This document shows, one piece after another, positions 544 through 22,831 of a stretch of 61,470 bases of DNA. The notes below the pieces were generated by a model. It was not told where the DNA came from. It made no database searches and saw only the letters and a list, made by a program, of their open reading frames with translations. The stretch is from Pseudomonadales bacterium (GTDB taxonomy: Bacteria > Patescibacteriota > Microgenomatia > UBA1400 > PJMF01): NCBI GenBank assembly GCA_020632235.1, contig JACKFY010000003.1, positions 160,139 through 221,608 of the forward strand. Direction: 5' to 3'. The number at the start of each line of letters is the position of its first letter. Position 1 is the first letter of the stretch. A program made the position numbers and the translations under genes.

Positions 544-2133
544 TTATGGACTATCAGAGGTGAGAAAAAAGTAAAATCTTGGCTGCCCGTCGCTTCCAAA
601 AACGGTGTGGAATGCCTTACGCACATCTATTTCGTCTTCTGGCGAGGCAACTACCAACGCATTGTTTCTGGCTAAATCGACATCGGTGATGTCTTGGGTA
701 AACTCATACTTCACTAATGATCCACCTCTATACCAAATAGGGTTGGTCTTGCGCACAAAAAGCGCGTAGATATAGGGCTGACCATACTCTGCAGTGAAGA
801 GTATTTTTTCTACCGTTGGTGCTCCGTCCAGCCCTTTTTCGTACTGCTGGGCGAGCGCAAACGCCTCTAGGTACCCATCTGAGAATGATGAAGCGGAAGT
901 CTGAGCAAACACGCAGTAGTAATCTGAAAGATAGGCGGTGAAAAGAAAGACGTGTAGTGTCAAGACAACACCTATCGTAAGTTTGAGATAAATACTACCC
1001 AATTTTTTTGCCACTCTTGCCATCACGCTCATACCTAAAGTAGCCAGGAGTATACACCCGGGTAGTGCGAGAAGTGCTCTATTGGGATGCGGCACACTTT
1101 CCCCAATTGCAGCAGGAATTATCCCTATCACCATCCACAAAAATCCAAGTACCCACACTTTTTTTTCTTTGCTAGAAAAGCTGTGTTTTATAAAAAATCC
1201 AACACAAGAAATGAGCACTAATGCCAGCGTGGTGGGTAAAAGCACTCCCCACACTCCATCGCCGTGCCGCAGCGTATCGGTTGCACCGCCTATTAAAAAT
1301 CCTGGAGAAAGATGCAGCAACCACTGCTGTCCTGTTCTTGCTAACGCTTGGCCAAGTGGCTGGGTGGCAAACACCGTGCTGCTCGCTCGCGCTAGCCCTT
1401 GCCCAAACAATGAGTCTTTCAGGAATGGGTAGAGCGCAACTATGCCTAAAGCTCCGCTCGCTACCAACTCGCGCAATCGAGAATGAGCGCTTTTTTTATA
1501 AAGAATAAGGAGAGAGAGGAATAAAAGTGGGGTTACTACTTTTGCGCTATGGTAGGTGTAGAGGCTGCCTGCTCCACAAAGAACCGAGAATGTGAGTAAA
1601 ATAAGCCCGAGCTTACTACTCGCGCTTGTTTGAAACGCCCACAGTAGAAATACCACCATCCAGACGAGAAAACACAACGCAATGCCCGACTCAAACCCCA
1701 CCCGACTAAAGTGATGATGCCAAGGAGAGGCTATCATCAAAAACATACCAAATAATGATAGCCAAGTGCTTTGTGGTGTTTTTGGTAACAGTAGTTTGAG
1801 TAAAGCATATATGCCAATAATCGAGATAACCCCTGCGAGCGCAAAGGGTGTGCGTACTGCCGTCAGGTTCATGCCAAACAAAAAAGTAGAAAAGCCATTA
1901 GCGTAAATTGCAAGCGGAGCTTTGTAGTCACCAAACGATTGAAACGAAACAGGTAGGCGTTCCAACCACTCATCTCTTCTAGTGTGAAGGACTGCGTAAC
2001 CATTGTAGCCGATAGCTACCTCATCCCACGTCATGCCATGGGGAACTACCCCCAGATTGTAGAAGCGCGTTATAACTACTAGTAGCAACAGCGCAATACC
2101 CAGCAGTAATTGCGGCGGCACTCGTTTCATCAC
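544..2133 (-). CDS. GT-C fold glycosyltransferase (ArnT/PMT, GT39/GT83-like)
   Basis: N-terminal TM then RFYNLG..WDE acidic loop motif, YKAPL, many TM helices. Confidence 0.85.
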   Translation of the reverse strand: MMKRVPPQLLLGIALLLLVVITRFYNLGVVPHGMTWDEVAIGYNGYAVLHTRRDEWLERLPVSFQSFGDYKAPLAIYANGFSTFLFGMNLTAVRTPFALAGVISIIGIYALLKLLLPKTPQSTWLSLFGMFLMIASPWHHHFSRVGFESGIALCFLVWMVVFLLWAFQTSASSKLGLILLTFSVLCGAGSLYTYHSAKVVTPLLFLSLLILYKKSAHSRLRELVASGALGIVALYPFLKDSLFGQGLARASSTVFATQPLGQALARTGQQWLLHLSPGFLIGGATDTLRHGDGVWGVLLPTTLALVLISCVGFFIKHSFSSKEKKVWVLGFLWMVIGIIPAAIGESVPHPNRALLALPGCILLATLGMSVMARVAKKLGSIYLKLTIGVVLTLHVFLFTAYLSDYYCVFAQTSASSFSDGYLEAFALAQQYEKGLDGAPTVEKILFTAEYGQPYIYALFVRKTNPIWYRGGSLVKYEFTQDITDVDLARNNALVVASPEDEIDVRKAFHTVFGSDGQPRFYFFLTSDSP

Positions 2134-3254
2134 GGACTGACTTTCTGCACTATGGTGTCACCAGAAAGTTTTTGCTCCAGCAGTCTTACGATCAGCACTA
2201 TCCAAAACGGCAGCAGCAAGAGTATGTAGCGAAGTGAACTAGCAGAACCAAACGCAAAGAGAAATAAGGTCAGGACGCTAAACATCCCCATCATCATGCT
2301 CCAAAATGAGTGGCGTTGTCTCAAGCATGCATAGCAGTAGCCCAGAAATGTCAGTGGCACAGCCCGAGACCATGAGGGCTCAGTGTATATCGTGTGAGGT
2401 TGCCACCAGGCGGCATACTTCCCAAATAATATTGAATCAAAAATAAGAAACTTTGGTATGGTACGCTCTCCTGTCCACCAAGAAAAACGAAACCACTCAA
2501 AACGCGCAAAGTCTACAAGACTATGACTCATAAAATAAACACTGTAGGTGGCTAGGTACACTCCTACTGCCACTACAAATGAGTACAAAGCGTGCAGTAA
2601 CACTTTTTCTTTGTGAGCAACAACCATCACCAGCCCAGCTGGTAGGATCATAAAGGGAAATGGGTACTTGATCGCACTCATTACACCCAAACACACCCCA
2701 ACCAATCCATACTTCATCACTGGACTACATTTTTTTGAAGCAAGCAAAATAAACAGCAGTAATACAGAAATAAGAAGGGGTATGTCAAGCATCGTAAACT
2801 GCAGCTGCTCGGATACAATAGGGAAAGAGAAAAAGATTGCCATGCTCAAGAACCTCATACTGGTGCGCTGCAGTACCATTGCTGAGAATGCATACATGCA
2901 CAGAGCCAACACTCCATATACAACGCTATTTATAGTATAGACGGATCCAAACAGCTGTGCCCCAAAACCATAGAGATACTTCGCCAGCGGAGGATGTTCA
3001 AAGTTGACCGTAGTAGGGTCTTGACCCTGCAGATAGATGTACGCAGCGTAACTATACAAATCTGAGTCACTTATCTCAAGCAACTTTTGATCACCCAATA
3101 CATACTGTGATGTGCTGTATAACACAGAGTAGTCATCAAGTGTTGTTTGTTTGAAAAGCGTCTCTCTATACCCAATCAATGACCAAAAAAATAATACTAA
3201 AAAAATACTAAAAAAACCATACAGCAATATGTTTTCTGTTAAACTATTCGTCAT
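2130..3254 (-). CDS. GT-C fold lipid-carrier-dependent glycosyltransferase
   Basis: SDSDLY and NFEHPPLAKY motifs, polytopic membrane protein; 4-nt overlap with the next gene. Confidence 0.75.
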   Translation of the reverse strand: MTNSLTENILLYGFFSIFLVLFFWSLIGYRETLFKQTTLDDYSVLYSTSQYVLGDQKLLEISDSDLYSYAAYIYLQGQDPTTVNFEHPPLAKYLYGFGAQLFGSVYTINSVVYGVLALCMYAFSAMVLQRTSMRFLSMAIFFSFPIVSEQLQFTMLDIPLLISVLLLFILLASKKCSPVMKYGLVGVCLGVMSAIKYPFPFMILPAGLVMVVAHKEKVLLHALYSFVVAVGVYLATYSVYFMSHSLVDFARFEWFRFSWWTGERTIPKFLIFDSILFGKYAAWWQPHTIYTEPSWSRAVPLTFLGYCYACLRQRHSFWSMMMGMFSVLTLFLFAFGSASSLRYILLLLPFWIVLIVRLLEQKLSGDTIVQKVSP

Positions 3255-4143
3255 ACTTCATCTTCCAGTACGGTTTCCACAGTAGATGCAAAAACTTCTC
3301 TTTCAGCGTGCCATTTTTCCACACAAATGTCTGTGCGTTGTTCCAGCTCATGGCTTGAATCTGCTTTCTGCCAAACACCGATCTATTGGTTGTCTCGTGA
3401 TCGTGCGCAACGGTGGCAGTTGGCTCAAACAACACCTTCCAGCCCCTTTTTCGCGCTCGAAATGACAAGTCAACATCTTCCCAATACGCTGGATGGTAGG
3501 CCTTATCAAACCCACCCAGCTCAAGCCATTTTTCTCTGTCAAAAAGCGCGCTGCCGCCCGACGCCCAGGCAGTCTCGCCCCCACTCATATCATCTGCTTT
3601 TTGGTGAAAAAACAATCCTTTTTCAAACCACAGCTTGTTTTTTCCTGATACCACCTGGTGATTATCTGCCTCCACCTCTCTGCAGCCAACTGCAAATACT
3701 ACCTCGTCATCGAAGTGAGCTAGGAGTGGAGCTATCAGCTCGCCCATCGGGCGCACATCATTATTGAGTAGCAGTACAAAACGATGTGATGACAAAAGCA
3801 CGCCAATATTGGCAGCACCTGCAAAGCGTATGTTGTCTCTCAGCGCCACCAACACGATACGCATTTTCTTTGCTGTAGCCGTTATGACACTACCGTAGGC
3901 TATCTGTGAAATACCATCAGTGGAGTCAGGATAGTACCCACGAGGAGTGGGAACCTGAGGTATCTGCTCTACCTGTTTGAGGCCATAGGTCTGCTCGAGC
4001 CAGCTTTTCGTTTCATCACCGCTTGCATCATCCACAATCACCACTTCGTCTTGATCCCTGAGTATGCTCAGCACCGCTGGTATGTTTTTTTGGAGATGCA
4101 CAACTCCATTGTAGGTGGGAATAACAACCGATACGCCTGACAT
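3244..4143 (-). CDS. GT2 family glycosyltransferase
   Basis: SVVIPTYNG, IVDDAS, LLNND, YWEDVDL motifs. Confidence 0.9.
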   Translation of the reverse strand: MSGVSVVIPTYNGVVHLQKNIPAVLSILRDQDEVVIVDDASGDETKSWLEQTYGLKQVEQIPQVPTPRGYYPDSTDGISQIAYGSVITATAKKMRIVLVALRDNIRFAGAANIGVLLSSHRFVLLLNNDVRPMGELIAPLLAHFDDEVVFAVGCREVEADNHQVVSGKNKLWFEKGLFFHQKADDMSGGETAWASGGSALFDREKWLELGGFDKAYHPAYWEDVDLSFRARKRGWKVLFEPTATVAHDHETTNRSVFGRKQIQAMSWNNAQTFVWKNGTLKEKFLHLLWKPYWKMKYDE

Positions 4144-6115: not shown

Positions 6116-7024
6116 CTATACTACCGTATACTTTCCCATTCTGCCTATGAGTGCGTGAAGTGCTCCCAGTCGTTCGTACTGCGCTCCCCCATACAACTGG
6201 CGAATGGCAAATGAGAGTGTCGTCATCTTTCTGCGCCATTTTCCGTGTTGCAGACCAAAATAAATCCTGTTTCTGGTAAAGTAGTAACGTTGGGTGGGTG
6301 AGGCAATCCCAGAAGAGCCAGCGTTATCATGCCAGACAATTGCGCTGGGCTGCAGGTAGAGCTCATACCCATATTTTTTGGCTAAAAGTGAAAATGCTAC
6401 GTCTTCTAAGTATAAAAAGTACTGCGGGTCAAGTCCGCCTGTTTTTTCCAGCACTTCGCGCTTGATAGCCATACAGCACCCCGTGGCGTAGTCAACTGGC
6501 TGCAAGGCAACACATTGACCTCTATCAACCTCGTCAACCCCGCGATGAAATGCTAGGACATTAGGCCAATCGATACTTCCCCCAGCATACCAAATAACCT
6601 TTCCTCGCTCTGCTTGGGTATACCCAGAGTGAAACTCCTGACCTTTAGTAAAGTAAATAAGCGGACAGATAATACCTGCGCCAGGGCGCTCATCAAATGC
6701 TGTCAGTAACTTGACCAATAGCTGTCTATGAACAGTGGTATCGTTATTAAGCAGCGCCACGTGTGATGAGTTTTTCTGCTCGATAGCATGCTTGATGCCT
6801 ATGTTATTACCACCAGTAAAGCCCAAGTTCTGTTCACTACGCACCACTAAAAACCTTGAAGGTGAGAGAGTGCGGGGTAGTGTGTAGGGCTTTTTTGAAC
6901 CATTATCAACAATAATCACCGAGTACCCAAACCCCTTGGTGGCCAGCTTTGAGAGCGAGCGTAAACAGCGAGAGGTAACCGCAGAGTTGTTGTAATGAAC
7001 GATGACAAGAGAAATGTGCTGCAT
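6116..7024 (-). CDS. GT2 family glycosyltransferase (WbbL/rhamnosyltransferase-like)
   Basis: IVHYN, IVDNGS, NLGFTGGNN, LLNND, GCCM, YFLYLED. Confidence 0.9.
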   Translation of the reverse strand: MQHISLVIVHYNNSAVTSRCLRSLSKLATKGFGYSVIIVDNGSKKPYTLPRTLSPSRFLVVRSEQNLGFTGGNNIGIKHAIEQKNSSHVALLNNDTTVHRQLLVKLLTAFDERPGAGIICPLIYFTKGQEFHSGYTQAERGKVIWYAGGSIDWPNVLAFHRGVDEVDRGQCVALQPVDYATGCCMAIKREVLEKTGGLDPQYFLYLEDVAFSLLAKKYGYELYLQPSAIVWHDNAGSSGIASPTQRYYFTRNRIYFGLQHGKWRRKMTTLSFAIRQLYGGAQYERLGALHALIGRMGKYTVV

Positions 7025-7967: not shown

Positions 7968-9452
7968 CTACTCTTTTAGCAATGAAATCTCTTGTCGCAG
8001 CTTGCTGTTTCCTACTATCCAAAATACTACCATATAAGTACATGCTAGGAGCATCATGCCAAAGAGTAACTGTCCTACTCCTTGACTCCACCACCCCCAT
8101 CCCACCATCCCAACCAAAGCCATACAACCAGCTGCCACTAGCTGCCGCCAAAATGTCTCCAAAAAGTGAAACGGCACAAACCGCTTGAGCATAGTGACAG
8201 ACAAGGCCGAACTCCAACTAATGACAAATGCCGCCAGCGCAACACCTTGATATCCCTGCCACCACACAAAAAGAGGTGTTACTACCCACACTAAAACTGT
8301 CCACATGATCATCAACTGTAGCGTCTTGTTGATCTCACCGATAGCATTGAGTGCGTTGGTGAGAGGTGAGGAAAGCGCGCTCCACCCAATACTTAAGGTA
8401 AAGAAAATCAAGCTACTGGCTGCAGGTAGCCACTTGCTGTATTCAGTAAACACTCGCAAAGTAGGGATAATAAATACGCACATTCCAACAATGATAGGAA
8501 AGATCACCAGTGTGATAAAAAAAAGTGATGATTCTATTCCTTTCGCCAGTGCTTTTTTATCATTTTGCAACCGAGAAAACGCAGGAAATGTAACTGCCAT
8601 AATATTTTGTACTGTTAGATTGTACGGATACATCGACCAACTTTTTGCCCATTGAATATATCCAAACTCTCTGGGAGAAAGAAAGAAAACCAATACTAAA
8701 TAAAATAGTTGGTCTTTAATACGAGCCAAGAAATCATTTAGTTGGAACTTAACGCCAAAACCCAGAAGACTTTTCAGTTTTGAGAAGTGAAATGAAAAAC
8801 CAATTGGCCACCACTGAATAGATGCCAATACTAATACTCCACTGATTGATCGAGCAAGAATTGCAGGCGCATAAGAAAGTACGCCAAAATCAGAAATAGC
8901 CAAAGCAATAAGAACAGCATGAAAGACCACTTGTTCAACAATTTGCGGAATGACTAACTTCGAAAAAGCCAACCGTCGCTCAAGCATAACTGAGGGAATT
9001 GTTTTTAGCGCTGCTAAAGGAAAAGAAAATCCAAGTGAGAGTAGAATCAAAAATCCAACCTGACCGAGCCTGTCCTGAAGGATCGGCACCTGATACAAAC
9101 CAATTATTACTAGTACAATTGCCCAAGATAACAGTTGTTGAATAGTGAAAGCCAGCCTATACTCTTCAAGCGTTGGCTCCTCCTCCTTCTGAACCAGTGT
9201 TGCCGCCAGTCCAATGTCAGAAAAAAAGACTAAGATACCAATTACCTGTATTACTAGTCCATACAAACCAAAATCTTCTGGACTGAAGTAGTAACTCAAG
9301 ACAAGTACTGAAACCAAACCTATACCCTGCACCAAAAGGGTCCGAAAAAAGTAGGAGGCAGCACCCGCTATGCTCTTGGCGTGAATACTCTTTTCTGCTG
9401 GAGATGCGTGGGTGGCTGTTTTGTTACGCATGTTTGCTGTGTTTGTAGACAA
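7968..9452 (-). CDS. wzx: Oligosaccharide flippase (Wzx/PST family)
   Basis: LSYYFSPEDFGLYG, DIGLAATLVQK, about 12-14 TM; start may be 9431. Confidence 0.85.
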   Translation of the reverse strand: MSTNTANMRNKTATHASPAEKSIHAKSIAGAASYFFRTLLVQGIGLVSVLVLSYYFSPEDFGLYGLVIQVIGILVFFSDIGLAATLVQKEEEPTLEEYRLAFTIQQLLSWAIVLVIIGLYQVPILQDRLGQVGFLILLSLGFSFPLAALKTIPSVMLERRLAFSKLVIPQIVEQVVFHAVLIALAISDFGVLSYAPAILARSISGVLVLASIQWWPIGFSFHFSKLKSLLGFGVKFQLNDFLARIKDQLFYLVLVFFLSPREFGYIQWAKSWSMYPYNLTVQNIMAVTFPAFSRLQNDKKALAKGIESSLFFITLVIFPIIVGMCVFIIPTLRVFTEYSKWLPAASSLIFFTLSIGWSALSSPLTNALNAIGEINKTLQLMIMWTVLVWVVTPLFVWWQGYQGVALAAFVISWSSALSVTMLKRFVPFHFLETFWRQLVAAGCMALVGMVGWGWWSQGVGQLLFGMMLLACTYMVVFWIVGNSKLRQEISLLKE

Positions 9453-15661: not shown

Positions 15662-15724
15662 TGACCCGCTCCCCTTATACTTGACACTAATTGTAATTAA
15701 AATAGTTGTCAGAAAGGGGGCAAA

Positions 15725-15937
15725 GTGGCAGGAATTTCTAAAGATATTAAGGCCGAAATCATAGCCAAGGTAAAGGCAGGGCAAAAAGTGGCGGATTTAG
15801 CCAAGGCGTATGGAATTAGCACTAAAACCATCTATAACTGGCTGCGAGGTCAAGTAAAAGAGCAGGTGTCTATGGGGAATACAAACGGTAATGAAGAAAC
15901 CAACAACTTAAGGCAAATACTTGAGTTCTCACACTGA
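15725..15937 (+). CDS. IS3-family OrfA (HTH)
   Basis: KVADLAKAYGISTKTIYNW helix-turn-helix. Confidence 0.8.
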   Translation: MAGISKDIKAEIIAKVKAGQKVADLAKAYGISTKTIYNWLRGQVKEQVSMGNTNGNEETNNLRQILEFSH

Positions 15938-16198
15938 ACCAGAAGTCAAAAAAAAGAACAGAAACTAGTACATTACTTTTGGAAGCACTGCCACATCTGG
16001 ATAAAACTCTCTTGGCGGATGCTCTTGGTATTTTAGGTAGTGGTTGTACAAAACAGATTTTATTCAGGTGAAAAAAGACAAGCAGTTAAAGCAACAAATT
16101 GAGGAGGTGTAGAGCCCTCACCCAGAGCAAAGCCAGTTATATGGCTACCGCAGGTTAGCAATTGAACTAGGAGTTGGTAAGAAGGAATTCGCAGATGT

Positions 16199-16826
16199 AT
16201 GAAGAAATATGGCTTGAGGCCATACAAAAGAAAAGCCAGATGGCGAAAAAGAAGAGATGAACAAAGAAAGCCAGTAGCTTTTGCAAACGAGATTAAAAAC
16301 CAGTGTCCACTAGTACCCAACCACACTTGGGCTGGAGATTTTACATACTTGCCATTTAAGGGCAAGTTTATCTACGTAGCTACTTTCTATGGATATTTTT
16401 ACCAGAGAGATAGTGGCTTGGCAAATATCCGATAGACATGACAAAACATTGGTTAATGCAAGCCTTTTAGATGGCTTAGTTAACCGAGACTTCCAGAAAC
16501 CAATATACATCCACTCTGACCAAGGAGCAGAATATTGTTCCCAAGATTACACTTGATTTAGTGAAGAATTTTGGGGTTAGCAATTTCCATGAGTACCAAG
16601 GCTTCTCCCTGGGAAAATGGTTACCAAGAATCCTTTTACAACAACTTTAAAACTGACTTAGGCCTTGAGTTTGACCGCTTCGACGATGAAGGGCACTTTC
16701 TGGAAGCAATACACCACACCCTTTAGAGCTACAACCATGAAAGAATTCACTCTGCCTTGAAAATGCCACCCTCCAGATTCCATGCCAAGTATTTACAATC
16801 CGTGTCTACGAAAAGGGGCGCTTGAC
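16199..16826 (+). pseudogene. IS3-family OrfB DDE integrase core, split by several frameshifts
   Basis: PNHTWAGDFTYL, IHSDQGAEY, PWENGYQESFYNNFK and RIHSALK occur in different frames. Confidence 0.8.
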
Positions 16827-16906
16827 AATGTGCTATTAAATTTCGTTATTATAACGCATCAATATCAATTCCCGTAAGTTCTTTTATTTTTAATTTTGAT
16901 CCATTA

Positions 16907-17368
16907 TCAATAGCTTGTAAAGCTATACAGAGATTTTATTGTTACTCCATGGTCTCCTTCCGATGGCGATAAATACCTTTCCTCAGACAAGCCTAATACT
17001 ATTCCAGGACCAAGTGTAGTGGTGGTAATTCCCAGTTTTTGAAGCTTTATAATCAATGTTTCTTTTCTTCCAATACTTGCCATTCCGCTATCTGTTAACG
17101 CATAAGGTCTAGCTAGTTGGGGGTCTGTTTCTACATGCATGGTTCGTGCATCTCTATTAAGTAAATAACTACCTTCGGCAATATCCAACAACAATGATCC
17201 CAAATTAACACCTCTAAAATAAAGCGAAGTACTGGGATCATAAGCTTCAAAAACTTGTGAATCATCGACTTTTTTCAGAATTTGAAATGCTGCATCAACA
17301 ATACTAATTCTAGTTTGTCTCTCCGGAATACCACCTTGATCAAAATTAAAAATATTGCCTTTACTCAT
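16907..17368 (-). CDS. Cassette 6: hypothetical protein
   Basis: 153-aa ORF starting about 35 nt after the attC5 core; no family recognised; the true end may be 16849 (..LQAIDNGSKLKIKELTGIDIDAL*) if frameshifted. Confidence 0.65.
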   Translation of the reverse strand: MSKGNIFNFDQGGIPERQTRISIVDAAFQILKKVDDSQVFEAYDPSTSLYFRGVNLGSLLLDIAEGSYLLNRDARTMHVETDPQLARPYALTDSGMASIGRKETLIIKLQKLGITTTTLGPGIVLGLSEERYLSPSEGDHGVTIKSLYSFTSY

Positions 17369-17402
17369 ATTACTTTACATATTGGTAAATTTAATAGCAT
17401 TT

Positions 17403-17537
17403 CATATAACGTTTTGCAGCTACCCGAAGGTGGCGATTTCGAAGCACTTCACTGTCAGCTAAGCACAAACTTTGATAGAGGCACAAAGCTTGATTTAACC
17501 ACTGAACCGCCACTTTTGGGTAGGTGCTGTTATGGGC
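17403..17537 (-). repeat. attC-like site 5
   Basis: R'' GCCCATAAC (17537-17529, contains the CPBP stop TAA), R' GTTATATG (17410-17403); arms CTACCCAAAAGTGGCG / CTACCCGAAGGTGGCG, 14/16. Confidence 0.9.
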
Positions 17538-18346
17538 TGGTGTTCTTCTCGCGTTCATTTGTCGCTAAATTTTTTGGCTTAAAAATAATGATTGTCAAAA
17601 TACCCCAAACTGTTATTAAAAATCCCATATAGTTCACGATATTTTTGTCGGCAAGGTCTGCTGTGAATGCGATGTCTATGGTTGAGTGAAAAAAAACAGC
17701 ACAAATTAAAATACTTGCTCTGGATGAGTTGTAAAGCCAAGTCAATAAAATACTTCCTGTCAATAGGCTAAATGTCCAGCCGAATATGCCTGCAAAATCC
17801 ATTGAAGTGTAACCTGGTCTGTAAAAGAAAAGTGGCCAATGCCAAACAGCCCAGAATATTGTCAAAATGATACTTGAAGTCAAAGCATTAAACTTGTCTT
17901 GAAACCTTGGCAATGCAAAACCCCGCCAACCAACTTCTTCTCCAAGTCCAAAGAAGATTAAGTTATAAATGAAAAATGTCAACAAGTTGAATTGAGGAAA
18001 CTCTTTTGAAGTTAAAAGACCCGAAATATTGATAGGCGAGTTATCAACGAAGTAGTTTATGATTGTCGCAATGAAAACGAGTAAGAATGGACTTAAAAGT
18101 GCGATTGCAAAATAAATTAGCGGTCTAACTTGTAAGCACTTTTTAATCAAACTTTTTACACCTTCGTTATTTTGAAACATCCAAGTTGTAAGAAATTAAA
18201 GCCGATTAACGGACCAAGTCCACCAAGTCCGTGGTAATAAGCAAGGTCGGCAAATTTGTCAACCCCAAAATGTGTCCATATAGCGGAAGCCAAATTGTCC
18301 AACTGATTAAATATGCAAGTCCGAAATATGTTATTAGTTGTTTCAT
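17530..18346 (-). pseudogene. Cassette 5: CPBP/Abi (CAAX-protease-like) intramembrane metalloprotease, two 5' frameshifts
   Basis: EEVGWRG, WAVWHWP, H motifs; N-terminus MKQLITYFGLAYLISWTIW starts at 18346 in another frame; stop lies inside R''. Confidence 0.85.
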
Positions 18347-18377
18347 TTCTTTTTAAACTCTGTCGTCACTTACACTT

Positions 18378-18518
18378 GCCCATAACGGTTGGGCGGTAAG
18401 GTATGAGTAGTGGCGGATTACGGAGCACTTTCCTGTCAAGATACGATGAACTTGATGCGAGGTAGAACGCCTGAATACGCTACAGCCCCCGCCATTACTT
18501 ATACACGATGTTATGGGC
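18378..18518 (-). repeat. attC-like site 4
   Basis: R'' GCCCATAAC (18518-18510), R' GTTATGGGC (18386-18378); arms GTATAAGTAATGGCGG / GTATGAGTAGTGGCGG, 14/16. Confidence 0.9.
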
Positions 18519-18537
18519 TGGGCTTCTTTTTCTGTCG

Positions 18538-19167
18538 TCAATAACTATACTTGTCATTCAGTCCTATTCCGTTAAAAATCTGTTCTTTGTATTTCTCAAT
18601 TCGACCAATTCTTGTTTGTGATTGCTTGGGTTGTGAAAAATGAATGATATAGCCCCTTTGTCGTCCAGCTGTTAATGCGTAAAATGCTTTCTTAAATGCA
18701 GGGTCTTGTTCAAATGCTTCAAGAAGTTCGTTAGGAATTGGTTCAGGGTTTTTCTTAAACTCTACTTTTTTTCCGCTTTCTTCAATTTCTATTGCTTCCA
18801 AAACGTATTCTTTTAAAACATCTTTTACTTTCTCTATGTCTTTAACATTGGTGAATTTTATAATTCTGTCTGACTGCAAATTTCCTTGTTGTTGGAGTAT
18901 TTTATGTTTGTCAGTCAATAATACTCCTTTGAAAAAGCCAATGTTTGCCGATTCCTTCAATGCACCCACAGAAACAATGTTTTTCCCTTTATGCGTATAG
19001 ACTGGTGCTCCCCATTTTATTTCTTCTGTCAAACCTGTTTCTAAAACAATTTGTCTAAGCATTTCCAATTCTTCACGCCAATTATGGACTTTGCATTGTG
19101 GCGTTCCGCCATACTTACAACGCATACAGCCGTCAATAAGATATTTGTCTACTTGTGGGTTCATCAT
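18538..19167 (-). CDS. Cassette 4 gene 2: DUF1801 plus YdeI/OmpD-associated domain protein
   Basis: EEIKWGAPVY, IGFFKGVLL, AFYALTAGRQRGY, TR..RIEK. Confidence 0.85.
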   Translation of the reverse strand: MMNPQVDKYLIDGCMRCKYGGTPQCKVHNWREELEMLRQIVLETGLTEEIKWGAPVYTHKGKNIVSVGALKESANIGFFKGVLLTDKHKILQQQGNLQSDRIIKFTNVKDIEKVKDVLKEYVLEAIEIEESGKKVEFKKNPEPIPNELLEAFEQDPAFKKAFYALTAGRQRGYIIHFSQPKQSQTRIGRIEKYKEQIFNGIGLNDKYSY

Positions 19168-19540
19168 TTTGTTAGAAGGTTTAATCTGTATTCAATCATT
19201 TTGATAATCAGTTCTTCGGGCAAAGGTTTATTTATAGGGAACAGAACAGAACCTTTACCTTTTTTGTAATCTTTTAATTCTTCATCAAATTTCTCAATTG
19301 TAGTGGGGTGAGGATAAAGTCCAACGTGATTTTATAACCTGCCATCATAATTTGTTGTTCTCTTTTTCCATTTTTTATTAGGGCATACGCTGGAATATTA
19401 TAATTCAATAATTCTTCTGCATCTGGAACAACCTTAAAAATACACTGTCTAATTTGAAGTAATGTATTTTTTACCTTTTCAGGTTGCGAATGGAAGTAAT
19501 CTTCTACTGAATTTATTTTTGCACTATTGTCCATAAGCAT
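19164..19540 (-). pseudogene. Cassette 4 gene 1: DUF1801 (YdhG-like) protein, one frameshift
   Basis: VEDYF, LLQIRQCI, YNIPAY; adding one A restores YKNHVGLYPHP..GKGSVLFP..KPLP and a stop overlapping the next ATG. Confidence 0.8.
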
Positions 19541-19581
19541 TTTAAATTATCCGTTTTTTCAACTGTCTGTCGTTTAGCCTT

Positions 19582-19654
19582 GCCCATAACGGTCGCGTGT
19601 ATGTGGCGTAGCCTGCCGATAGGTGGCTATGACATATACACAGTGTTAGGTAGC
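19582..19654 (-). repeat. attC-like site 3 (short, 73 bp)
   Basis: R'' GCTACCTAAC (19654-19645), R' GTTATGGGC (19590-19582); arms GTATATGTCATAGCC / GTATGTGGCGTAGCC, 12/15. Confidence 0.88.
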
Positions 19655-19669
19655 GTTTTTTTTACTTTT

Positions 19670-19963
19670 TTAGGTTAATAATCCGCAAATCAGCCCACCA
19701 ATTAACCCCAATGCCATTATTGGTTTAAATGCCTTCGTTATCAAAGCATCTGGAAAACTCATTACTCCGCCAATTATTAATCCCTTCAACCAACCCTGTA
19801 TTGGCAAGTCAATGTTGAAAATAATAAACCCAATAGAAAACCTATTTACAAATGAAGCAATAATTGCTTTTTGCTTATCTTCAAATTCCATAAAGAACAT
19901 TGGTATTATTGAGGTAATTCCAAAAATTGTCCCAGCAATCAAACCTTTGATAATATTATTCAT
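19670..19963 (-). CDS. Cassette 3 gene 2: small membrane protein of unknown function
   Basis: 97 aa, about 4 Gly-rich TM segments; ends just before R'' of attC3. Confidence 0.75.
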   Translation of the reverse strand: MNNIIKGLIAGTIFGITSIIPMFFMEFEDKQKAIIASFVNRFSIGFIIFNIDLPIQGWLKGLIIGGVMSFPDALITKAFKPIMALGLIGGLICGLLT

Positions 19964-19967
19964 ATTT

Positions 19968-20312
19968 TCAACTTTTTAATTCGTAGGCAGATTTAGCCAA
20001 CTTATCAATTCTTTGTCAACATCATTAAGTTTTTCCAATTTAACTATATGCTTAAATCTGTTAGCAGATATTTTTTCAATTTTTTGTATTCTTTCACTCT
20101 CAATTTCAAAGTTTGTGTGAATTTTCAACAAGAGGTAGTTTTTCCGTGAGTAAACTCCAGCAAATCCCGATTTACTGTCCAAATGAATGCTTGACTTTTT
20201 AGGTAATTGAGTTACTGTTCCAAATTTTTTCGCATTCGGTTATTAGTTTCTCGTAGATTTTGGAAACTATTGGTTCTTTATTTATCAAGTGGTCATTAAC
20301 CGTATATTCCAT
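19968..20312 (-). pseudogene. Cassette 3 gene 1: DUF5655-like protein, two homopolymer frameshifts
   Basis: Reconstructed MEYTVNDHLINKEPIVSKIYEKL..PKKSSIHL..FAGVYSRK..HIVKLEKLNDVDKELISWLKSAY. Confidence 0.7.
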
Positions 20313-20331
20313 TTGTTTGTTTTTTCGTAAT

Positions 20332-20467
20332 GCTACCTAACGTTTTGAATATGGTGCGTTTGGCATTTTGAAACACGTCATTTTCAAACTACTATTATTT
20401 TTTATTAATTGCTATAAACTTCATTTTTTGCACTTTCTGCCAAATGCACTATATTTTTGTTAGCTGC
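20332..20467 (-). repeat. attC-like site 2
   Basis: R'' GCAGCTAAC (20467-20459), R' GTTAGGTAGC (20341-20332); arms ATATAGTGCATTTGGCA / ATATGGTGCGTTTGGCA, 15/17. Confidence 0.9.
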
Positions 20468-20472
20468 AGGTA

Positions 20473-21049
20473 TTACTTTAATTCTCTTCCTAATTTTTCA
20501 ACTTTGTTAACCAACTTTTTCTTTTTGTACATCTGTTGAACTTTTAACAGGTCCAAAAGTTGTTATTTTCACGGGTTTAATGCCAACAAAAACTCCAAAA
20601 TCGACTTTTTCATTGAATTATGTCCAGGCTTTTATAAATCAATGAATAATACCAATTTGGTGTGTCAGTCGTTACAATTAATCTTGCAGTTTTTCAGTTA
20701 ATAGTTTTTGAGAACGGTGATTTCTCTTGGTATTCAAAAGCAAATCCAGGCAGAAACAATCTCATCAAAAATCTTTTAACAACGCAGGATAAGTCCCCCA
20801 CCAATTGGGATAAACGAAAACCAAATGATCAGCTTTTGTTATTAAATCCCATACTTTTTGTAAGTCTGGTTCCAAATCTGTTCGTTTTCTGTACCCATAT
20901 TTTAATACAGGCGAAAATTCTAAATCTGTGAGGTTAATAATTTCACATTCTGTTTCGGACTTATCTACTCCTGTTTTGTATTTTTCTGCCAATGAAGTGC
21001 AAAAACTCTCTTTGTCAGGATGTCCATTAATTATCAATATTCGTTTCAT
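20473..21049 (-). pseudogene. Cassette 2: NAD(P)H:quinone oxidoreductase (flavodoxin_2/MdaB-like), several frameshifts
   Basis: ILIINGHP, ADHLVFVYPNWWGTYPALLK; the downstream LFLPGFAF, KTARLIVTTDTP and GIKPVKIT segments lie in shifted frames. Confidence 0.85.
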
Positions 21050-21078
21050 ACTTACTGTCCTTTATATTGGTTTTACTT

Positions 21079-21223
21079 GCAGCTAACGTTTGCGTGTATG
21101 AGAAGTTTCGCACACAACCTTAATTTTATCAATTAAATGTGCGAAATTTGGGAGAAAGAAAAAGTGCAACCTTTGAAAATTACTAACGCACTTTTTCTTG
21201 AACCTTATACACGCTGTTATATG
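21079..21223 (-). repeat. attC-like site 1
   Basis: R'' CATATAAC (21223-21216), R' GTTAGCTGC (21087-21079); arms GCGTGTATAAG / GCGTGTATGAG. Confidence 0.88.
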
Positions 21224-21243
21224 ACGTATTGCTCAGACCCCTA

Positions 21244-21840
21244 TTAGTAGAGATTAAATTTGTCTAAATGATCTCTAATTCTAAAAAATATTTTTTTGTG
21301 ACCTTCTGAAGTCGGATGTAAGCCATCGTCTAAATCAGTTTCATTAATTACATCAAAGGTTGGAATAAAATGGACGTTTTGTTGGGATGAAATTTTTGCA
21401 ATTGCTTCATCGTATTTTTTTAGCGTTTCGTTCTTGTAGTACTTTTTCTTGTCACGGAGGTAAACAGCGTTGATTTTTTCCTCATCAACTTTTGTTAAAC
21501 CAACTAAAATAATATGAGAAGTGTAGGATCTGGCCATATCAACAAGCTCTTCAAAATTTTTGATTGTATCTTCGAGATTGACTCTATATTTCTTCTCATC
21601 AGTAAAATACTGTGAATCGTTGCCGGCAATTGCAAAAATTATTATTTCGGGTTTACGTGGCTTACATTCGTTATTAAACCTTTGAAGCAGGTCATTAGTA
21701 TCGTCTCCAGAAATACCAAGGTTAAAAATAAAAATGCCTTTTCCAAGAAGATATCTCTTTAGAAGGTCACACCAGCCGCCTTCTTTAAAGTCGTTCATGC
21801 CGCTGGTAATACTGGCTCCAAATACACAGGCTTTCTTCAT
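21244..21840 (-). CDS. Cassette 1: SGNH/GDSL hydrolase
   Basis: Block I FGASIT, block II NLGISG, block III GND, block V DGLHP; intact. Confidence 0.9.
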   Translation of the reverse strand: MKKACVFGASITSGMNDFKEGGWCDLLKRYLLGKGIFIFNLGISGDDTNDLLQRFNNECKPRKPEIIIFAIAGNDSQYFTDEKKYRVNLEDTIKNFEELVDMARSYTSHIILVGLTKVDEEKINAVYLRDKKKYYKNETLKKYDEAIAKISSQQNVHFIPTFDVINETDLDDGLHPTSEGHKKIFFRIRDHLDKFNLY

Positions 21841-21904
21841 AAAAAATATTTTTTAGAATTGTTTGTAAGATAAACTTTCATTTACGGTTGTCTGAGCAAT
21901 ATTT

Positions 21905-21966
21905 CATATAACACTTGTCTATACGAACCTTTTGTAACTAAAAGTTAGTATAGACAAGATATCAAC
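21905..21966 (-). other. attI-like primary recombination site with adjacent hairpin
   Basis: Core GTTATATG (21912-21905) matches R'' of attC1; no inverse core upstream; perfect 11-bp inverted repeat at 21914-21924 / 21948-21958. Confidence 0.7.
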
Positions 21967-21988
21967 AGTATGATAGTGTTTTATTACC

Positions 21989-22831
21989 ATGGTAAAAACG
22001 GATATTACGAACTTTAGGAAGAAGATGAAGATTCAGCGGTACTCCCCTCGTACCGTCAAAATATACTGCTCGCATGTTGCGCAGTTTTTCGCACATAGAC
22101 AACTGCAACCGAATCAAGTCACAAAAATAAATATCGAAGAGTATGTAGCGTTTTGCATTGACCAGAAAAACATCGCGTTTTCAACCCAAAAAGGCATCGT
22201 GGGTGCAATCAAGCTCTTTTACACATTATGCTATAACAGAAACCTGCACATCGACTACATCTACCCCAAACGAAAAGAGTATAAGATGCCCACAGTACTC
22301 TCACAAAATGAAGTAGCCCTACTACTCAACGCGCCCACAAATCTCAAACATAAGACAATCTTAAGCCTTATATACAGCTGCGGACTCAGGCTCTCGGAGG
22401 TTGTCAATCTCAAAATAGCAGATATCGACTCAGCTCGCATGCTGATTCACATACGGGCAAGTAAAAATAACCGCGACAGAGACGTGATGCTCTCGCCCAA
22501 AATTCTCACACTGCTCAGAAGTTACTTTGCAGAGTACAAACCGACGGTTTATTTGTTTGAGGGGCAAAAAAGAGGCAAGTACTCCACTCGCTCTGTGCAA
22601 AAAGTTTTCAAAATAGCACTCGCAAATTCAGGCATCCAAAAGAGCGCGAGCGTGCATACTCTTCGTCATTCTTTTGCAACACATATGATAGAAAACGGCA
22701 TAGATGTACGCGTTGTCCAAGAGCTGCTCGGGCACAAAAATATCCAGACTACCCAACTCTACACGCACATCACTACCCACATGAAATCAAAGATAAAAAG
22801 TCCCTTTGACACGTTGCTTGCCTCAACTTAA
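21989..22831 (+). CDS. Tyrosine recombinase, integron-integrase-like (short form)
   Basis: N-terminal SAM-like region (YSPRTVKIY); catalytic R (YSCGLRLSE), K (SKNNRDR), HTLRH, LLGH, TTQLY; divergent from the cassette array. Confidence 0.92.
   Translation: MVKTDITNFRKKMKIQRYSPRTVKIYCSHVAQFFAHRQLQPNQVTKINIEEYVAFCIDQKNIAFSTQKGIVGAIKLFYTLCYNRNLHIDYIYPKRKEYKMPTVLSQNEVALLLNAPTNLKHKTILSLIYSCGLRLSEVVNLKIADIDSARMLIHIRASKNNRDRDVMLSPKILTLLRSYFAEYKPTVYLFEGQKRGKYSTRSVQKVFKIALANSGIQKSASVHTLRHSFATHMIENGIDVRVVQELLGHKNIQTTQLYTHITTHMKSKIKSPFDTLLAST

Follow-up and report, generated by a model that had tools for sequence, protein, structure and literature searches.

A probable integron-like gene-capture platform with a short tyrosine recombinase in the chromosome of a CPR bacterium

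The chromosome of a CPR bacterium (Microgenomates-type) with a tiny genome, from activated sludge, probably carries an integron-like gene-capture platform composed of a short recombinase, an attI-like site and cassettes whose hairpins take the role of attC; we give this reading a probability of about 80%. Positions 16828-22831 of the window (the whole 61,470-nt stretch of DNA that was analysed) contain a 280-aa tyrosine recombinase, the attI-like site, five complete cassettes and one cassette cut by an insertion sequence. The attI-like core ends 76 nt 5' of the recombinase gene, which is transcribed away from it, and the cassettes lie beyond the site on the opposite strand. Each complete cassette carries one or two genes with a hairpin site 3' of them. 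The original prediction had named six cassettes (the sixth cut), five hairpin sites, an attI-like site and a divergent tyrosine recombinase, and all were recovered, as follows (cassette limits were set with the crossover placed at AA|C):

21989-22831, + strand: recombinase gene, 280 aa, Phage_int_SAM_4 and Phage_integrase domains; related to XerA and IntI, with neither IntI insertion
21905-21988, no strand assigned: attI-like region; core CATATAA|C = CATATAAC at 21905-21912, motif ACTTGTCTATACGAAC, palindrome at 21914-21958
21087-21911, - strand: cassette c1, 825 nt; GDSL/SGNH hydrolase gene 21244-21840; hairpin site E 21084-21224
20341-21086, - strand: cassette c2, 746 nt; flavodoxin-like / FMN reductase gene 20765-21049, broken in the assembly; hairpin site D 20338-20468
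19590-20340, - strand: cassette c3, 751 nt; DUF5655 gene and a gene for a 97-aa membrane protein 19670-19963; hairpin site C 19587-19654
18386-19589, - strand: cassette c4, 1204 nt; DUF1801 gene and a gene for a 209-aa DUF1801/OmdA protein, 18538-19167; hairpin site B 18383-18518
17410-18385, - strand: cassette c5, 976 nt; gene for a CPBP/Rce1-like protease 17530-18180; hairpin site A 17407-17537
16828-17409, - strand: cassette c6, truncated; 153-aa ORF 16907-17368; hairpin site lost to the IS insertion
15681-16827, + strand: IS3-family element that cuts the array at c6; assembly indels account for part of its frameshifts

A tRNA was the only Rfam match in the window. The window differs from the short-read contigs at many single nucleotides, and the broken cassette ORFs coincide with such differences, which suggests that the breaks are assembly indels; the ORFs broken here are intact in 20 other loci, and in other loci the DUF5655 protein of c3 has 114 aa and the DUF1801 protein of c4 has 123 aa.

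The five hairpin sites of the window are 68-141 nt long, and each reads 5'-YAAC|G...T|GTTR-3' (coordinates on the + strand). The first 8-10 bases of every complete cassette (5/5) are the reverse complement of that cassette's own inverse core. The right box of each site, set over 10 nt against the reverse-complemented left box that comes next in the direction of the recombinase, matches it at 9, 10, 10, 9 and 9 positions, whereas only 1-5 of the 6 variable positions match the site's own left box. With the related loci included, there are 24 adjacent site pairs; in 22 of them the left box of the next site is matched at 5 or more of the 6 variable positions, and only two match their own left box. 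It had also been predicted that the upstream core of each complete cassette is the exact reverse complement of its own inverse core and that these cores differ between cassettes; the first half of this holds (9-10 of 10 nt in all five cassettes), but the second does not, as core GTTATGGGC is common to c4 and c5 and core GTTATATG to c1 and c6.

An unbiased scan of the window plus related loci (1.02 Mb), in which only Watson-Crick pairs were allowed, found 32 sites of this geometry, against 0-3 in shuffled sequence. The central spacer, which is partly paired, has an excess of 3 or 4 nt on the arm holding AA|C in 29 of these 32, and the mirrored spacer geometry occurs at chance level. The stems comprise 11-25 pairs without bulges, and there are no extrahelical bases on the R''-L'' arm; the canonical aadA1 attC, by comparison, has T and G bulges on its 3' arm. 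Mismatches in the stems are strongly biased (48 G.T versus five A.C), and because of this bias it is likely, on indirect grounds, that the bottom strand is the one that folds. In four of the five window sites the + strand, complementary to the coding strand, has the lower folding energy.

In the reaction that we propose, the strand complementary to the coding strand would fold into a hairpin with an R box (nnnnnYAAC/GTTRnnnnn), a central spacer that is asymmetric, and an L box (GTRTAT/ATAYAC). Within the conserved AAC/GTT triplet, strands would then be exchanged by the recombinase, with a cut between A and C that is placed by analogy with IntI, and cassettes would exit as circles and enter at attI. 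The single-stranded substrate, the exact cleavage bond, the circular intermediates and the mode of cassette expression are all putative.

The movement of cassettes as units, of which a footprint had been claimed, is seen in comparisons with other genomes. Cassettes 3 and 4 occur in 20 other loci at 98-99.8% nucleotide identity with varied neighbors. Cassette 3 is 99.3-99.7% identical in ten of these, all with different flanks, and its homology stops exactly at the AAC of both left boxes; cassette 4 is 98-99.8% identical in the other ten, three of which adjoin short recombinases of 41-46% identity. These cassettes are independently mobile units. The hairpins do lie 3' of genes and form stable folds, as would terminators or REP-like repeats whose likeness to recombination sites was incidental. 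However, a terminator scan gave no match at these sites, the flanking cores covary cassette by cassette, and the same site body is found with many different flanks in the source metagenome. The breaks in between-genome homology exactly at AAC cores exclude the terminator or repeat interpretation for practical purposes.

A platform that is real but dead in this lineage, with cassettes that are inherited relics, is unlikely. The distal end of the array has been removed by an IS insertion and the window has breaks in several cassette ORFs, as might be expected of a fossil, but the ORF breaks have the explanation given above and the catalytic residues of the recombinase are intact. In addition, the cassettes are 98-99.8% identical to copies elsewhere, which makes them recent acquisitions, and one sample appears to contain two alleles of the array. 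The second allele is indicated by a 942-nt contig in which other sequence lies between attI and the end of cassette 4; it has depths of 9.6 and 11.3 in the two source runs, a contig with cassettes 1 and 2 has 13.8 and 14.8 in the same runs, and their sums (23.4 and 26.1) are close to the backbone depths of 21 and 26. Thus two array variants appear to share one attI in the source population, with the alternative allele represented by one short contig with 30-nt anchors. Breaks in the short-read contigs coincide with cassette boundaries, and one lies at 21909, inside the attI-like core. Different arrays at one attI are also present in three Empedobacter strains, in which the recombinase and attI are identical.

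Could the locus instead be a low-GC island of a Bacteroidota genome wrongly joined to a CPR contig during assembly or binning? Its G+C content is 31-40%, lower than that of the flanks (44-52%, about 47%); in the sample, cassettes 3-5 and site A far exceed the backbone in abundance; and a Bacteroidales MAG (L013) has, next to an unrelated gene, a site with 93.6% identity to site A. The depth of cassette 3 is ∼500 versus a backbone depth of 21, that of the site A body is ∼2100-3900 in the source sample, and that of the IS3-family element is ∼100. Low G+C and excess depth are to be expected of shared mobile cassettes in any case, however, and host genes are on the same independent short-read contigs as attI and the recombinase, at the backbone depth of 21. 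The contig over 16799-17434 (cassette 6) is likewise at backbone depth, the two array alleles have depths that add up to that of the backbone in both runs, and the closest relatives of the recombinase are in CPR bacteria with the same layout. A chimera is very improbable, and the original assignment to this host stands, with the island not moved to another organism; the host's TrmD also points to CPR.

The recombinase falls below every IntI, XerC and XerD cut-off. Its match to TIGR02249 is in two pieces and scores 196 bits (cut-off 265), and the NF011946 score is 128 (cut-off 435). XerD and XerC identities were rejected on scores far below the cut-offs (182 bits versus 330 and 176 versus 335, respectively) and on their outgroup position in the tree. 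Its score for the archaeal XerA profile NF040815, 219 bits, is just below the cut-off of 220, and the best sequence and fold match is archaeal XerA (PDB 5hxy, 4a8e); the protein was nevertheless not assigned to XerA, since it misses that cut-off and archaeal XerA sequences branch outside the 100-row clade of the short family and IntI. With XerC/XerD as outgroup, the recombinase lies in this clade together with IntI1 and VchIntIA, and its order relative to IntI was not separated. Residues R134, K159, H223, R226, H249 and Y258 are the conserved catalytic residues in an alignment of the family, and the lysine motif of the beta-hairpin is KNNRDR in the CPR clade versus KGxKDR in its relatives.

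The IntI-specific domain (I2 helix region) is thought to be essential for integrons. Insertions of ∼31 and ∼11 aa, present in IntI1 and in the canonical IntI of another locus (L086), are missing from the 280-aa protein, and ∼43 residues of VchIntIA have no counterpart in it. The comparison with IntI1 and the L086 IntI, the split TIGR02249 match and the AlphaFold model, which has no extra helix, agree that there is no room for an I2 insertion, as had been predicted.

Homologs that are 35-58% identical adjoin the same kind of array in CPR bacteria, Bacteroidota and one Firmicutes MAG. Such neighbors are present in the CPR loci L002 (Nomurabacteria), L114 and L115 (a complete 762-kb genome), in Psychroserpens, Winogradskyella and other Flavobacteriaceae, in a Firmicutes MAG, and in loci L099, L104 and L105. 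Recombinase and array are linked in two fixed orientations, divergent and co-oriented. The complete genome CP064982.1 is among the carriers of such arrays. The expectation that homologs would be linked to arrays is borne out by these neighbors in several phyla, and that of a distinct recombinase and site family acting as gene-capture platform of a reduced genome is supported, except that the system also occurs outside CPR; among the loci examined, Bacteroidota hold most of its members.

It might still be argued that the array is an ordinary one on which a canonical IntI acts in trans from a gene elsewhere, and that the short recombinase is an unrelated Xer-type housekeeping enzyme, and the near-cut-off XerA score and the structural match to archaeal XerA would fit this. 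Judged from the window and the related loci, this is quite improbable. The recombinase gene abuts an attI-like site whose motif, YAAC|ACTnGnnTATACGAA, is common to two CPR homolog loci (L114 and L115) and whose core is immediately followed by a palindrome with 22-nt arms (21914-21958). Such recombinases lie beside arrays in many phyla in the same two orientations, the sites have a different spacer geometry and none of the extrahelical bases read by IntI, and surveys report almost no IntI in Bacteroidetes, yet such arrays are seen there. We infer that the recombinase beside the array is its catalyst.

The platform resembles integrons, above all the sedentary chromosomal ones and those of the co-oriented “inverted integrase” group, in having a recombinase, an attI and an array of promoterless cassettes, in the AAC/GTT cores of its hairpin sites, and in cassette starts that complement their own inverse cores. 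Other shared features are a bottom strand that probably folds, site types shared within a community, the occurrence of both divergent and co-oriented layouts, and the placement of IntI1 and VchIntIA in the same tree clade as the short recombinase, apart from XerC/D and archaeal XerA. It differs from them in that the short recombinase lacks both IntI insertions, the I2 region included, and in that its sites have, in place of extrahelical R''-L'' bases, a spacer ∼3 nt longer on the AA|C arm. The palindrome beside the core in the attI region is a further difference, as are the hosts, CPR and Bacteroidota, which are nearly empty in integron surveys. XerC/XerD acting on the folded single-stranded attP of CTX-type phages (IMEX) show that a recombinase of Xer length without an extra domain can recombine a single-stranded DNA hairpin, but there whole phage genomes are integrated at dif by two host recombinases, and there is no cassette array, attI or cassette-specific core. 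Archaeal XerA has the same length and domain order as the short recombinase, but it resolves chromosome dimers at dif and has no associated arrays.

By IntegronFinder criteria the locus might be taken for a CALIN, a cassette-site array without IntI (Cury et al. 2016, PMC4889954), but unlike in CALINs a conserved recombinase adjoins the array. That study (PMC4889954) noted four recombinases near attC sites that were “intermediate between IntI and Xer” and dismissed them as not IntI. Published integron surveys report almost nothing in Bacteroidetes, neither integrons nor CALINs, a hint that sites of this type may be missed altogether by such surveys. We found no description in the literature of a platform of this type with a short recombinase.

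In practice, what counts as an integron is decided by one attC model and the IntI-specific domain, and on these terms Bacteroidota and CPR are reported as nearly free of integrons, whereas this locus and its relatives have the same gene-capture logic with a recombinase that lacks that domain and with a different site geometry. It would follow that gene exchange by cassettes is probably far more widespread than its known distribution indicates, that the I2 region is not universally required for hairpin-site recombination, with a recognition mechanism that is directly testable, and that CPR bacteria with reduced genomes gain a route to near-identical genes circulating among Bacteroidota-like wastewater genomes. 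A wider interpretation, which we hold tentatively and at somewhat less than even odds, is that recombinases without I2 and bulge-spacer sites constitute a second and large lineage of integrons, unseen by current finders. It would be the main cassette-exchange system of Bacteroidota and would reach CPR and perhaps DPANN archaea, episymbionts that draw on their neighbors' community cassette pool. It would also be the native platform from which ISCR2 took the tet(X) tigecycline-resistance genes, recognition would depend on the asymmetric spacer and not on extrahelical bases, and the IntI insertion would be a later specialisation.

The “xerD” or tnpF-like gene beside tet(X3), tet(X5) and tet(X14) (PMC7473080; p34AB, NZ_MK134375.1) belongs to the same recombinase family. 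Its protein is 47% identical to the window recombinase and is N-terminally truncated on plasmids, and in the literature consulted it figures as an Xer gene of unknown role, with “no integrons” reported. Unlike the present system, it does not form a working platform there but is a fragment borne on ISVsa3/ISCR2. Its membership in the family gives a concrete hypothesis for where these resistance genes sat before mobilisation. The sequence before tet(X3) has a cassette-type start, GTTATGTGCC, together with an attI-like palindrome.

The island containing the tyrosine recombinase gene has a G+C content of 31–40% across about 16.0–22.0 kb of the window, and its flanks are at 44–52%. All island genes other than the recombinase gene lie on the - strand, and five imperfect hairpins of 68–141 nt (sites A through E) stand between them; read on the + strand, each starts with nnnnnYAAC|G (left box) and finishes with T|GTTRnnnnn (right box). 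A lone left box, followed directly by a palindrome with 22-nt arms, forms an attI-like site.

Features of the cassette island
15681–16827: IS3-family element on the left side, cutting the sixth cassette
17407–17537, read on +: hairpin site A
18383–18518, read on +: hairpin site B
19587–19654, read on +: hairpin site C
20338–20468, read on +: hairpin site D
21084–21224, read on +: hairpin site E
21902–21912: attI-like lone left box (TTTCATATAAC), 76 nt ahead of the recombinase start codon
21989–22831, + strand: tyrosine recombinase, 280 amino acids, at the right edge of the low-G+C island

The integron-like anatomy of the original prediction, an array with an attI-like site and a short recombinase, is thus confirmed with all its parts in place, and its interpretation as a cassette system is supported. 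A promoter and terminator scan over the island gave matches at chance level only, and no Pc-like promoter is proposed. The best named matches of TrmD, whose gene lies immediately beyond the island, are from Patescibacteria, Woesebacteria, Pacebacteria and Microgenomates (55–63% identity).

With the crossover placed inside the AAC triplet, a cassette begins with the C of a left box and stops after the AA of the following one in the direction of the recombinase. The right box in each cassette is complementary, in reverse, to the left box found at the cassette's opposite end (9, 10, 10, 9 and 9 of 10 nt match in the five complete cassettes of the window). A site's own left box is part of the neighboring cassette and does not match that site's right box. 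Among 24 adjacent site pairs from the window and ten related arrays, 22 have at least five of six variable positions in agreement with the neighboring left box; the own left box agrees equally well in only two. The cores had been thought to be specific to each cassette; the complement rule does hold in all five, but not all cores differ, as cassettes 4 and 5 share one and cassettes 1 and 6 another. The final cassette of a Nomurabacteria array (locus L002) breaks the core rule.

The window recombinase is not an IntI protein under the accepted criterion: it scores 196 bits, in two pieces, with the integron integrase model TIGR02249 (cut-off 265), 219 bits with NF040815 (XerA_Arch; cut-off 220), 182 bits with XerD (cut-off 330) and 176 bits with XerC (cut-off 335). 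Its match to VchIntIA (PDB 2a3v) is also split, and about 43 integrase residues have no partner in the window protein. Direct alignment gives insertions of about 31 amino acids in IntI1 (reference sequence from plasmid R46) and about 11 in the canonical IntI of locus L086; at this point the window protein and every aligned array-linked relative are as short as XerC, XerD and XerA. An AlphaFold2 model (pLDDT 88) runs from a helix at residues 170–183 through a short beta hairpin to a helix at 200–214, and the extra helix is absent. The top fold matches of the model are XerA and then VchIntIA, the latter aligned with about 40 gap columns. The split TIGR02249 match, these alignments and the model all bear out the earlier claim that there is no room for I2, the helix-bearing insertion specific to IntI. 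The catalytic Arg, His, Arg, His and Tyr residues and the hairpin Lys are kept across 25 family members.

A quick maximum-likelihood tree was computed for 104 sequences, with E. coli XerC and XerD as the root. Archaeal XerA splits off first in it and is followed by a clade of 100 sequences (support 98). Within the latter, the canonical IntI group (VchIntIA, IntI1 and the L086 protein; support 99) forms a single branch in a radiation whose branching order the tree does not resolve; the remaining branches consist of short recombinases only, and the window protein lies in a 21-member clade (support 99) alongside CPR and Bacteroidota members. With these 104 sequences the tree is compatible with either gain or loss of the IntI insertion. 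Smyshlyaev et al. (2021) described the insertion as "not fully conserved" within their integron-like subgroup, and Cury et al. (2016; PMC4889954) reported four attC-adjacent recombinases as "intermediate between IntI and Xer" and concluded that they were not IntI.

The hairpin sites also differ from canonical attC. The folded bottom strand of the aadA1 attC (R46) has a T and a G bulged from its 3′ arm and unpaired spacers of near-equal length, whereas the sites of the window and its relatives have bulge-free stems of 11–25 pairs. Their asymmetry lies in the central spacer, where the arm with AA|C is longer by three or four bases in 29 of 32 sites; the mirror spacer geometry occurs at chance level only. 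An L box (GTRTAT/ATAYAC) keeps a constant spacing from the core, and by eye the attI regions have a similar TATA(G/C)AC motif at a nearly equal distance. With stems picked by Watson–Crick pairs alone, as a guard against strand bias, 48 stem mismatches are G·T and five are A·C, and this excess of G·T indicates that the strand complementary to the coding strand is kept foldable; it is also the better-folding strand at four of the window's five sites. A first strand-bias scan, which counted both G·T and A·C as pairs, gave 68 matches against about 50 in shuffled sequence and was discarded; its Watson–Crick-only replacement gave 32 against 0–3. MAFFT with RNAalifold on 28 full-length sites misaligned the two arms, and the only pairing recovered was that of AAC/GTT plus a short inner helix, so no covariance model was built and our own scanner was used. 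A recombinase without I2 and sites without extrahelical bases would make a coherent pair.

The window system behaves like an integron, but it lacks two of the things that define integrons in current usage, the integrase domain and the attC architecture with extrahelical bases. A full-text literature search, in which most subscription journals were outside coverage, found no description of a short-integrase cassette system. IntegronFinder 2.0 reported one complete integron only in Bacteroidetes proper.

In line with the original prediction, homologs of the recombinase are linked to adjacent arrays, here in CPR, in Bacteroidota and in a Firmicutes MAG. The Nomurabacteria locus encodes a 58% identical recombinase and, like the window, has a divergent layout; the cores of its four cassettes are chained. 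The complete 762-kb CPR genome CP064982.1 has spaced minus-strand genes in the matching position, where attI and one chained site were verified, and a further CPR contig (L114) has one cassette only; the attI motif YAAC|ACTnGnnTATACGAA is common to the window and these last two. Three Empedobacter strains have an identical recombinase in the same chromosomal place with the same attI, and their arrays are wholly different. Chained-core arrays also adjoin homologs in Psychroserpens, Winogradskyella, other Flavobacteriaceae, several Bacteroidota MAGs and one Firmicutes MAG; some are divergent like that of the window, and others lie downstream and are co-oriented. Because of these Bacteroidota and Firmicutes homologs the system is not CPR-specific, and most members seen here are Bacteroidota. 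No such hairpin sites were found in 23 relatives from a mostly proteobacterial clade. A scan of genome contigs gave 30–48% identity among the matches listed, which do not include the window's own genome or its nearest kin. To this system the window adds a CPR host, near-identical cassettes held in common with Bacteroidota-like genomes, and signs of array polymorphism within the source population.

Several of these loci have features of their own. In the Nomurabacteria locus the array end adjoins a tRNA gene, with a second copy of the 3′ end of that gene at a distance of 140 nt (L002:5960–6180), and a conserved motif, AGTGCAACGTGG, lies about 40 nt past three hairpin sites (6300–6350, 8040–8095 and 8815–8870). 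The recombinase and lone cassette of L114 (3594–7490) lie between the N- and C-terminal halves of a split transketolase gene pair. In a Candidatus Pacearchaeota MAG (L077:7965–11470) a DPANN archaeal recombinase homolog is followed by co-oriented small genes, one of which encodes a GDSL hydrolase 41% identical to the window cassette 1 protein; directly behind it is a 102-nt hairpin with the ends ...TTCAAC and GTTGAAC.

The 97-amino-acid protein of cassette 3 has letter-for-letter copies in 263 blocks of the public collection. In ten fetched loci its neighbors differ on both sides, and window positions 19587–20342 are 99.3–99.7% identical in nucleotide sequence to all ten. The homology runs in every locus from the AAC of site C to the AAC(G) of site D; these bounds place the crossover within AAC-G. 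They also mean that a hairpin moves together with the genes preceding it on the coding strand, so that the polarity is the canonical one. Cassette 4 is 98–99.8% identical in ten other loci, three of which adjoin short recombinases 41–46% identical to that of the window. Site A has a 93.6% identical counterpart next to an unrelated gene in a Bacteroidales MAG; site types are therefore common to different phyla.

The window stretch is present in many activated-sludge and wastewater metagenomes. In the source sample a single 4253-nt short-read contig at depth 21 joins attI, the recombinase and the downstream host genes, and so gives no ground for placing the island in a different organism. Cassette 6 is also at depth 21, cassette 4 at 49, cassette 3 at about 500 and the body of site A at 2100–3900. 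Short-read contig breaks coincide with cassette boundaries, the loose ends on either side of site A vary from contig to contig, and in other samples the cassettes are present and the backbone is nearly absent. The excess depth, the varied site A ends and the cassettes without backbone indicate that the cassettes are also in other organisms. The contig of cassettes 1 and 2 has a depth of 13.8 (14.8 in a twin run), below the backbone's 21 and 26. A 942-nt contig, with a reported join at attI, carries the last 30 nt of cassette 4 and then other sequence at depths of 9.6 and 11.3; summed, the two contigs reach 23.4 and 26.1, matching the backbone. We read this, from the contigs and short anchors, as two array variants in one population that differ between attI and cassette 4. 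The alternative cassette is not a second copy of cassette 6, which is at plain backbone depth. Joints with sides below 30 nt (17401>21631, 17534>19588 and 16918>19270) were left out of the interpretation.

Several cassette open reading frames look truncated in the window (DUF5655, 68 amino acids; DUF1801, 88; flavodoxin-like, 94). Compared with the window, short-read contigs of this sample have single-base indels at 19991 and 20225 in cassette 3 and many in the IS3-like element (15681–16827), and DUF5655 (114 amino acids) and DUF1801 (123) are intact in all twenty other loci. From these indels and intact copies, the breaks in DUF5655 and DUF1801, like that in the IS transposase, are probably assembly errors and not pseudogenes; the flavodoxin-like gene, which has no comparison copy, is outside this reading.

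The 5′ spacer of site B is unusually long (14 nt; 18386–18400), and the nearest copies of cassette 4 differ from the window at exactly these positions, with homology beginning at 18401. An exact copy of cassette 4 (L106:1–7700) lies between crAss-like phage genes (crAss_MUZ, CrAss_Ring_1/2) and a 272-amino-acid recombinase 35% identical to the window's, and may belong to a phage genome carrying such a platform. At four loci (L107, L109, L110 and L111) cassette 4 lies a few hundred bases from an IS91-type transposase (Zn_Tnp_IS91, Y2_Tnp) paired with a 304-amino-acid tyrosine recombinase 34% identical to that of the window, a pairing also seen with ISCR2 on Acinetobacter plasmids. A cassette for a 439-amino-acid Beta-lactamase-family protein (PF00144) adjoins cassette 4 at L105:3474–5448, where the recombinase is 46% identical.

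Two loci carry tet(X)-type genes. The second cassette of an Empedobacter array (L008:6000–10001; GCA_047948065.1) encodes a Tet(X)-family monooxygenase 86% identical to Tet(X3) and is flanked by an ANT(6)-like cassette and an alpha/beta-hydrolase cassette; the paper on tet(X14) in Empedobacter described a "xerD" divergent from the tet gene and "no integrons". On the A. baumannii plasmid p34AB (L089:5049–7220; NZ_MK134375.1), ISVsa3 is followed by an N-terminally truncated recombinase of this family and then by tet(X3), with an attI-like palindrome and the same cassette start as in Empedobacter (GTTATGTGCC) ahead of tet(X3) and half a hairpin site behind it. The truncated recombinase gene of the p34AB type is present on about 70 Acinetobacter plasmids.
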